Shown piece by piece: positions 63,311 through 64,000 of a stretch of DNA of 64,000 bases. Location of the stretch: the NCBI RefSeq assembly GCF_054482595.1, contig NZ_CM137008.1. One strand, 5' to 3'. The notes below the pieces were generated by a model. That model worked only from the letters and a program-made list of their open reading frames with translations, did not search any database and was not told the DNA's origin. The translations under genes and the position numbers were made by a program. How positions within the stretch are numbered: the stretch's first letter is position 1; every line of letters starts with the position of its first letter.

Positions 63311-64000
63311 ATGACAGCAATAGCCTGCTGGCTAAACAGGGAAGAAGGGGAAAGTATCTGGGCCGTAAGCGACTCAAGAATCACCCAGCATGAAAGTGTA
63401 ATGACAAATCACTGTCCTAAACTATTCTCGATTCCGGTATCAGTTATTCGCTCCAATGACATATACCGTCTATCTCCGGAAAAAATTATGGAGTTTGGTT
63501 TCGGCTTTGCAGGAGGAACAATGATCGGTATAAATGTGAAGGAGTTACTTGCCGTATCATTATCTTCATTACATGAAGTTAATTATTATGATGTTCAGCA
63601 GCCGGAGTTGACTTATGATAGTTACCCGAGTCTTTATGAAATTGCAGTTTTAACAAAGGGAATCGCAGAAAAATTTATACTGGATATTGGCCAGTTTTTT
63701 CCCCGTTCTGTAGCAACGGAGATGATTATTTACGGATTCTGTTTCAGAACACAGGTACATAAAATCATTAAGATCTACAACACCCCATCAAACCCCACTA
63801 ATCTTGTAATTGAGGACTGCCTTGACCTGACAACAGGTACCCCGGTAGTCTTGGGAGACAGAAAGCAGCAGTTTCGGGAAGATATTGAGATGACGAGGGG
63901 GCGTTTTGAGAATGGCACACTTAACTGGTGGCGGGCGCCATTTATCGCGTTAAACAACTGGATATCACAGGACACCGTAAATACAATTGGTGGGTATATT
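63311..64000 (+). CDS. hypothetical protein with HslV/proteasome-beta-like N-terminus (partial, runs off window end)
   Basis: Strong SD AAGGGGG 7 bp upstream; open frame to window end (not in ORF track, no stop); MTAIA...WAVSDSRIT and GFGFAGGT resemble HslV MTTIV...IAGDGQAT and AGFAGGTAD. Confidence 0.5.
   Translation, partial: MTAIACWLNREEGESIWAVSDSRITQHESVMTNHCPKLFSIPVSVIRSNDIYRLSPEKIMEFGFGFAGGTMIGINVKELLAVSLSSLHEVNYYDVQQPELTYDSYPSLYEIAVLTKGIAEKFILDIGQFFPRSVATEMIIYGFCFRTQVHKIIKIYNTPSNPTNLVIEDCLDLTTGTPVVLGDRKQQFREDIEMTRGRFENGTLNWWRAPFIALNNWISQDTVNTIGGYI

Follow-up and report, generated by a model that had tools for sequence, protein, structure and literature searches.

A solitary, mobile proteasome-β-fold hydrolase in the cargo region of an Escherichia coli prophage and its possible role in phage conflict

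What kind of enzyme is encoded by the partial gene at the end of this stretch of Escherichia coli DNA, and what might such an enzyme do in the cargo region of a prophage? The window analyzed here is the whole stretch of 64,000 nucleotides from contig NZ_CM137008.1 (assembly GCF_054482595.1). Its final segment, 63311-64000 on the plus strand, is a stop-free frame whose translation starts MTAIACWLNREEGESIWAVSDSRITQHESVMTNHCPKLFSIPVSV (at greater length, MTAIACWLNREEGESIWAVSDSRITQHESVMTNHCPKLF), includes MEFGFGFAGGTMIG further on, and is still open at the window end. A sequence-only reading had proposed that this frame encodes a threonine protease resembling HslV and the proteasome β-subunit on the strength of four motifs, the MTAIA start, WAVSDSRIT, HCPKLF and GFGFAGGT, all of which were located in the translation. 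The gene was also correctly described as truncated by the window edge: the frame runs off the end, and the full copy was recovered from identical DNA in E. coli EC5502, in which it comprises 299 codons (locus L001, 13662-14561). Window positions are obtained by adding 49649 to L001 positions, which places the end of the gene at window-equivalent 64210. Megablast searches with window 61650-64000 retrieved 100% identical copies from E. coli EC5502, 4FM and CREC-2 and from plasmid pSM107_MCR, and 98.9% identical copies from two further E. coli chromosomes. The best explanation of the evidence as a whole, to which a probability of roughly 0.55 is attached, is that the gene specifies a solitary, mobile Thr protease effector that acts in phage or mobile-element conflict.

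The fold of the protein was examined in a model generated by AlphaFold2 with a 20-sequence alignment. The model had a predicted local distance difference test score of 81 and a predicted template modeling score of 0.82. It comprises strands at residues 3-9, 15-21, 38-46 and 58-68, helices at 70-85 and 108-129, strands at 136-144, 149-158, 161-170 and 179-182, helices at 185-197 and 209-220, and strands at 230-235 and 240-246, followed by a C-terminal extension of lower confidence. This predicted succession reproduces the αββα sandwich and the S1-S10/H1-H4 order of strands and helices in proteasome β-subunits. When the model was compared with the PDB by Foldseek, the top 50 matches all were 20S proteasome β-subunits with E-values from 3.8e-9 and a probability of 1.0. 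Because the AlphaFold2 model and the Foldseek comparison converge, the predicted fold is a secure assignment, and in the model the protein is structurally closer to 20S β-subunits than to HslV. Thus, the proteasome-like character that had been read from the sequence is borne out by the fold, but the likeness to HslV does not extend to orthology. An HslV orthologue is ruled out by the lack of HslU co-occurrence, by the lack of any match to the NCBIfam or Pfam models for HslV, and by the length, rarity and mobility of the gene.

Relatives of the protein were gathered in a word-indexed search, which returned 26 clusters that derive mostly from Enterobacterales, and in a phmmer search that exhaustively covered 1.84 billion representatives and returned 185 clusters at E ≤ 1e-3. 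Most of the latter proteins are 270-290 amino acids long and align from residue 1. Matches in AFDB50 and cluster look-ups placed the relatives in the Alpha-, Beta- and Gammaproteobacteria, Cyanobacteria, Bacteroidota and Negativicutes, and members of the family occur in ~43 of 5,426 complete E. coli genomes (0.8%). Neither the protein nor any of 121 relatives matched the Pfam Proteasome model PF00227, and searches of PDB sequences were negative both by phmmer and with the family profile. Every public copy is annotated as 'hypothetical protein', and a literature search found no paper that cites accessions of family members. The family is a widespread, unannotated group of proteasome-β-fold N-terminal-nucleophile (Ntn) hydrolases.

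Conservation was counted in an alignment of 121 sequences with 22% mean column identity that includes homologues down to ~20% identity, and the E. coli HslV and Thermoplasma acidophilum β-subunit reference sequences were checked against the PDB. As read from this alignment, the predicted first mature residue is Thr or Ser, equivalents of Asp/Glu17 and Lys33 are present, and a Gly that would form the Gly47 oxyanion hole lies at the end of strand S4 (Table 1). The choice of Thr2, a Lys and a Gly as T1-type residues in the sequence-only reading agrees with the counts for Thr2, Lys37 and Gly68. Asp21 aligns to Glu17 of the T. acidophilum β-subunit and to Asp17 of HslV, Gly68 corresponds to oxyanion-hole residue Gly47 with the Phe-Ala-Gly triplet aligned by hhalign to Ile45-Ala46-Gly47, and Trp7 is kept in 115 of the sequences. 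By the secondary structure of the model, Gly182-[Asp/Ser]183 would fall at Gly128-Ser129, whereas hhalign places the loop differently.

Profile comparisons were performed with hhalign. Alignment of the family profile with a single HslV or PsmB sequence was not significant, but still paired Met-Thr with Met-Thr, Asp21 with Asp/Glu17, Lys37 with Lys33, and GFAFAGS with GFAGGT. The match to a small profile of Thermoplasmatales β-subunits was weak (P~0.006-0.007). At a permissive threshold the latter alignment ran full length in register, with Thr opposite Thr1, Asp opposite Glu17, Lys opposite Lys33, Phe-Ala-Gly68 opposite Ile-Ala-Gly47, Gly142 opposite Gly102 and Ile-Gly-Gly opposite Ser169-Gly170-Gly171, and with gaps confined to the S3/S4 and H1/H2 loops. 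As the Thermoplasmatales profile is shallow, with relatives of at least 58% identity only, this alignment served solely as a register check. The weak hhalign statistics and the failure of every sequence-profile method to detect the relationship are what might be expected if the protein were a catalytically dead homologue like the proteasome α-subunits, or if the motifs matched by chance. However, conservation of the motifs in the family alignment is far beyond chance, and this alternative is largely refuted and highly improbable. The proteasome fold together with an intact catalytic set is considered close to certain. Separately, Cys144 (codon 63740-63742) in a Gly-x-Cys motif is nearly invariant and specific to the family, with no counterpart among the catalytic residues of proteasomes; it might act structurally, as a redox switch or at an interface.

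An N-terminal Thr presupposes that translation begins at the Met-Thr codons, and RefSeq annotation by PGAP is inconsistent on this point for identical DNA: WP_233337191.1 extends for 345 amino acids from an upstream ATG, and WP_104769329.1 for 299. The longer version would mask the N-terminal Thr, is at odds with the homologues, and was rejected as a mis-called start. Met-Thr are the first residues in 144 of 173 family proteins, and a stop in the same frame is situated a few codons 5′ of Met-Thr in most homologue loci that were inspected. The stop is five codons away in the Pantoea gene, which is 80% identical, and is immediately adjacent in Providencia. GGAG or AGGA motifs precede the Met-Thr start in homologue loci, as the Shine-Dalgarno-like element does in the window. 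Because the upstream stops make Met-Thr the start in the homologues, comparison of the sequences identifies position 63311 as the true start and the family as one without a propeptide. The copy on a Vibrio nigripulchritudo plasmid (locus L018, 7001-7045) has ATC instead of ATG as the codon at the Met-Thr start, and the coding sequence in the record begins 14 codons further 3′. Translation of this copy may start at a rare codon, or the N-terminal Thr may have been lost.

Methionine aminopeptidase cleaves the initiator Met when the second residue is small, as in E. coli HslV, and the chemistry of the Thr nucleophile is established for MEROPS family T1. By the same rule, removal of Met1 from the protein would expose Thr2. 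The hydroxyl group of this residue, activated by Lys37 and Asp21 as the equivalents of Lys33 and Asp17, is predicted to attack a peptide bond, with the backbone of Gly68 in the place of Gly47 stabilizing the oxyanion, a scheme that draws on residue conservation and the fold. Peptide hydrolysis by the T1 mechanism is the probable activity of the protein. More speculatively, the loop insertions (S3/S4, H1/H2) and the ~50 residues that extend the C-terminus may set specificity, assembly or regulation, and activity might be gated by oligomerization or assembly as in other members of the proteasome family. Neither a dedicated AAA+ unfoldase nor a conserved partner would be needed. Two subgroups of family proteins, P0096, P0113 and P0142 on the one hand and P0089 and P0091 on the other (metagenomes), carry an additional 100-180 residues at the C-terminus. 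One subgroup ends in a Cys-rich, zinc-ribbon-like CxxC...CxxC pattern, and the other extension is common to P0089 and P0091. The extensions of P0113 and P0089 matched no Pfam domain; the extra regions could be sensor or targeting modules.

Gene neighborhoods were compared among the family. A cognate AAA+ unfoldase, which had been suggested as a possible neighbor, was not found: no HslU-like or recurrent AAA+ gene was present in any context examined. No neighbor of any kind recurs in ~18 independent contexts, and an AAA+ or other partner gene is thereby ruled out. The carriers include lambda-like, P2-like and Mu-type prophages, integrative and conjugative elements, conjugative plasmids and a Tn7-like element. 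A second E. coli subfamily (~37 genomes) is cargo of an integrative and conjugative element, in which the gene for the conjugative transfer ATPase directly precedes it, and a search of IMG/VR with a narrow alignment identified five viral contigs that bear the gene near the contig end. The gene is a solitary, horizontally mobile, single-gene cargo.

Many of these settings include known or candidate defense genes. In a lambdoid prophage of Serratia, the gene is flanked by cI and by a gene of the RelA/SpoT type, matched by PADLOC to PDC-S33 (E 1e-94). In Providencia, it is located between ogr copies of a P2-like prophage and adjoins PDC-S59 (E 1e-69), and in a Pantoea prophage a CBASS pair is 1.3 kb away (2TM effector, 9e-83; cyclase, 8e-148). 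A Photobacterium island combines the gene with an integrase, an HNH protein, an Mrr-like nuclease and a CBASS SAVED-2TM effector (2e-177). A Vibrio conjugative plasmid has the order PDC-M27ABC, the gene, a CBASS pair and then a DRT system (SLATT and UG17 reverse transcriptase), and an Acinetobacter plasmid has the gene near IS3, a reverse transcriptase and AbiEi. The Citrobacter gene is placed 3′ of a CbtA/CbeA toxin-antitoxin pair and 5′ of an integrase. Elsewhere, the gene is accompanied by TnsB/TniB-like transposition genes of a Tn7-like element in Sporomusaceae, by a TacA/GNAT toxin-antitoxin pair in Anabaena, by integrases on either side with BrnTA nearby on metagenome contig P0056, and by NERD and DUF2726 genes on metagenome contig P0089. 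Overall, CBASS, DRT, PDC-M27, PDC-S33, PDC-S59, AbiEi or Mrr-like genes were detected by PADLOC within a few kilobases of the gene in six independent lineages, and the gene also occupies att-proximal and immunity-region positions in prophages. These neighbors lend real circumstantial support to the idea of phage defense.

The same distribution bears on two other roles. The protein might be a protease for stress or protein quality control like HslV, BPH or Anbu, that is, a mobile accessory fitness gene with no part in phage conflict. Membership of the fold family of the stress proteases and the ordinary chromosomal neighborhoods of a few copies fit this proposal, and it has been argued that orphan proteasome homologues might need no dedicated partner for their action (Fuchs et al., 2021; PMC8665760). 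However, housekeeping-type proteases usually are inherited vertically, whereas the gene is very patchy in E. coli, has a low G+C content, and almost always resides in mobile elements beside defense or toxin-antitoxin genes. A role in stress or quality control is judged unlikely. The second alternative is a protease that benefits the mobile element itself by degrading host immunity proteins, the proteins of a competitor or a regulator for its own maintenance or spread. Carriage by prophages, by an integrative and conjugative element after the transfer ATPase gene, by conjugative plasmids and by a Tn7-like element is in keeping with such counter-defense, as are the moron-type positions. In contrast, the Serratia copy stands beside cI on the strand opposite to the early operon, a typical position for a defense gene expressed in the lysogen, and the plasmid copies are within defense islands and not in leading regions. 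Moreover, anti-defense genes are common in lytic phages, whereas tblastn found no copy of the gene in 50,697 deposited phage genomes. Counter-defense also seems a poor prospect.

The preferred explanation, a solitary Thr protease effector in phage or mobile-element conflict, must itself be set against several observations. The absence from deposited phage genomes counts against it as well. The equivalents of the supporting residues Ser129, Asp166 and Ser169 are retained just in part or would require coordinates for their placement, and the protein has no evident sensor or trigger domain. It matched nothing in PADLOC-DB v2.0.0, even at E ≤ 1, or in NCBIfam, PHROGs and Pfam. The contexts in Anabaena, P0029 and P0043 contain no defense gene, and the link to defense islands is guilt by association. 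Within the literature library searched, no paper was found that links proteasome homologues to phage defense. A role for the protein in phage or mobile-element conflict, whether defense or superinfection exclusion, is viewed as an even prospect when considered by itself. More narrowly, it is proposed tentatively that the protein is a single-gene, proteasome-type effector of anti-phage or inter-element immunity, perhaps switched on by infection-triggered assembly.

To our knowledge, no function has been assigned to Anbu, BPH or the 22 families of 2021, the orphan proteasome homologues of bacteria. If the narrower proposal of an immunity effector is right, the proteasome fold would gain its first defense function, and one of these orphan homologues would for the first time have a physiological role. 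Protection against phage would extend bacterial immunity by a new catalytic class and give a foothold on stand-alone proteasome-like enzymes, and the presence of the gene in E. coli makes the defense question directly testable. The protein also illustrates that a sequence invisible to Pfam, NCBIfam, PHROGs and PADLOC still can be assigned confidently by fold and residue conservation.

In E. coli, the gene content of the window is cbpA, which is interrupted by IS2, followed by cbpM, torDAC, torR and torT and then by the end of a prophage. The complete element is a lambda-like prophage of ~48 kb between torS and torT, with the int-xis end adjoining torS. At the opposite end, three cargo genes are situated between the tail-fibre assembly gene and torT, namely geneA (200 amino acids), the hydrolase gene and a gene for 410 amino acids; this end is the equivalent of the lambda b region. 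The accessory island of the sequence-only reading is, more specifically, the b-region-like cargo end of a lambda-like prophage. The G+C content is ~52% in the tor genes, 40-44% in geneA and the hydrolase gene, and 30-33% in the 410-amino-acid gene. A scan for promoters and terminators gave nothing above chance. The IS2 copy (window 53182-54540; TnpA 54045-54455 and TnpB 53182-54087, minus strand, above the NCBIfam cut-offs) is followed directly by resumption of the CbpA frame, of which only ~170 C-terminal codons are contiguous with cbpM. Strain EC5502 shares the prophage end but has an intact cbpA gene.

The small membrane protein that had been pointed out beside the hydrolase corresponds to geneA, which is upstream and is transferred together with the hydrolase gene within E. 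coli, but is absent beside the homologues of other genera. The geneA product belongs to no Pfam, PHROG or NCBIfam family and gave only weak PADLOC matches to ZorB/MotB transmembrane regions. It accompanies the hydrolase gene in all six E. coli genomes that possess the latter, across two unrelated prophages and a plasmid. Nevertheless, geneA was rejected as a conserved partner: it is missing from Pantoea, despite the 80% identity of the hydrolase there, and elsewhere, and copies with 96% and 92% identity are present in further E. coli strains that lack the hydrolase gene. An upstream gene of similar size in homologue locus L020 is unrelated to geneA. The 410-amino-acid gene product matches phrog_19262 over its full length (E 8e-292, function unknown) and has no Pfam or PADLOC match. 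This gene also was discarded as a partner, since it is absent from the NADC1036 prophage and differs in G+C content; it may be an independent moron or defense candidate.

The pair of geneA and the hydrolase gene recurs in strain NADC1036 in a second prophage, a myovirus of the baseplate J/gp47 type at tRNA-Arg, between intS and pinE. On pSM107_MCR, an IncI-type mcr plasmid (NZ_CP130669.1; locus L002, 7700-18331), a captured prophage end consists of gpJ, lom, a tail fibre gene and the three cargo genes, which reveals the transfer of a phage cargo region to a conjugative plasmid. The captured block adjoins the shufflon/pilV region and a truncated thermonuclease gene. After geneA, strain TL20 carries the remnant of an IS3 and then a gene for 445 amino acids that is unrelated. 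As geneA and the hydrolase gene recur in differing prophage and plasmid settings, and TL20 has a different gene after geneA, the cargo locus of the torS-torT prophage is a cargo-swapping hotspot.

Table 1. Coordinates of the hydrolase gene, its conserved residues and neighboring features. Positions refer to the window unless marked L001; fractions are counts in the 121-sequence alignment, and ~ before a residue denotes the proteasome equivalent.
Feature	Position	Strand	Remarks
Proteasome-β-fold Ntn hydrolase gene, partial	63311..64000	+	codons 1-230 of 299; ~210 nucleotides more beyond window
Shine-Dalgarno-like AAGGGGG	63298..63304	+	6 nucleotides before ATG; sequence read directly
Extra N-terminal stretch of 345-amino-acid annotation	63173-63310 / L001 13524-13661		PGAP upstream ATG
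Thr2 codon ACA	63314..63316	+	predicted N-terminal nucleophile after Met1 removal, ~Thr1; Thr 119/121, Ser 2/121
Asp21-Ser22 codons	63371..63376	+	Asp21 ~Asp/Glu17, end of S2; Asp 121/121, position 22 Ser/Thr 116/121
Lys37 codon	63419..63421	+	~Lys33, start of S3; Lys 121/121
Gly63-Phe-Gly-Phe-Ala-Gly68	63497..63514	+	end of S4 before H1; Gly63 115/121, Gly68 120/121
Gly142-Phe-Cys144	63734..63742	+	end of S5; Gly142 120/121, ~Gly102 (hhalign); Cys144 114/121
Gly182-Asp183	63854..63859	+	between S8 and H3; Gly182 120/121; position 183 Asp 52, Ser 37, Asn 8, Thr 6
Thr225-Ile-Gly227-Gly228	63983..63994	+	before S9; ~Ala168-Ser169-Gly170-Gly171 (hhalign); Gly-Gly 121/121, position 225 Thr/Ser 76/121
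torT-proximal prophage junction	61609..62226	.	sequence common to many E. coli strains ends ~62070 (megablast query 1-421); G+C ~52% to ~42%
geneA, upstream cargo gene	62227..62829	+	200 amino acids, one N-terminal hydrophobic helix
410-amino-acid cargo gene	L001 14996-16228, beyond window end		between hydrolase gene and tail-fibre assembly gene

Among characterized systems, the catalytic β-subunits of the 20S proteasome (MEROPS T1A; T. acidophilum PsmB, 1PMA; human β5i, 6e5b_K) share ~10-14% identity with the hydrolase. In comparison with these subunits, the hydrolase is ~100 residues longer owing to insertions in the S3/S4 and H1/H2 loops and to its extended C-terminus, lacks a propeptide, and does not clearly keep Ser129, Asp166 and Ser169. 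The gene is mobile and has no α-subunit or regulatory ATPase gene nearby. HslV (ClpQ) has ~175 amino acids compared to 299 in the hydrolase and is encoded in a core heat-shock operon, whereas the hydrolase gene is rare and horizontally mobile with no adjacent HslU or other AAA+ gene in any context. Anbu and BPH have no detectable sequence similarity to the protein and differ in their insertions; Anbu is encoded in a conserved operon and BPH is a compact protein, in contrast to the hydrolase as solitary cargo of mobile elements.

The proteasome-like fold also supports a protein ligase, the archaeal connectase, which raises the alternative that the Ntn site is non-proteolytic and belongs to a sequence-specific transpeptidase or ligase of this type, or to an amidase for small molecules or cell wall. 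Connectase is confined to methanogens and is without helices H1 and H2; the hydrolase keeps both helices and is much nearer to the β-subunits. A non-proteolytic activity of either sort is viewed as distinctly unlikely.

The closest comparison is with the 22 proteasome-like families, including the phage-linked PPH and AAH, for which no function, AAA+ partner or informative genomic context was reported (Fuchs, Alva and Lupas, 2021; PMC8665760). As noted in the same study, proteasome subunits in isolation show no activity before assembly. PPH and RPC were rejected as the family of the hydrolase, as both are without H2, which is present in the model. Family members such as WP_004254578.1 were in nr before 2021 and the family therefore may already be among the 22, with the GPH, DPH or PMI type likeliest, a comparison made by look-up and description only. 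WP_152342571.1 (GPH) and WP_074989469.1 (DPH) were not among the family members looked up, and the spread of the family in AFDB is wider than the 'Gammaproteobacterial' designation of GPH. Like the families of PMC8665760, the hydrolase retains Thr1, Asp17, Lys33 and Gly47 and a predicted proteasome fold at very low sequence similarity and has no AAA+ partner, and many of those families similarly are beyond the reach of profile-sequence comparison. Unlike them, the hydrolase family displays a context of mobile elements and defense islands.

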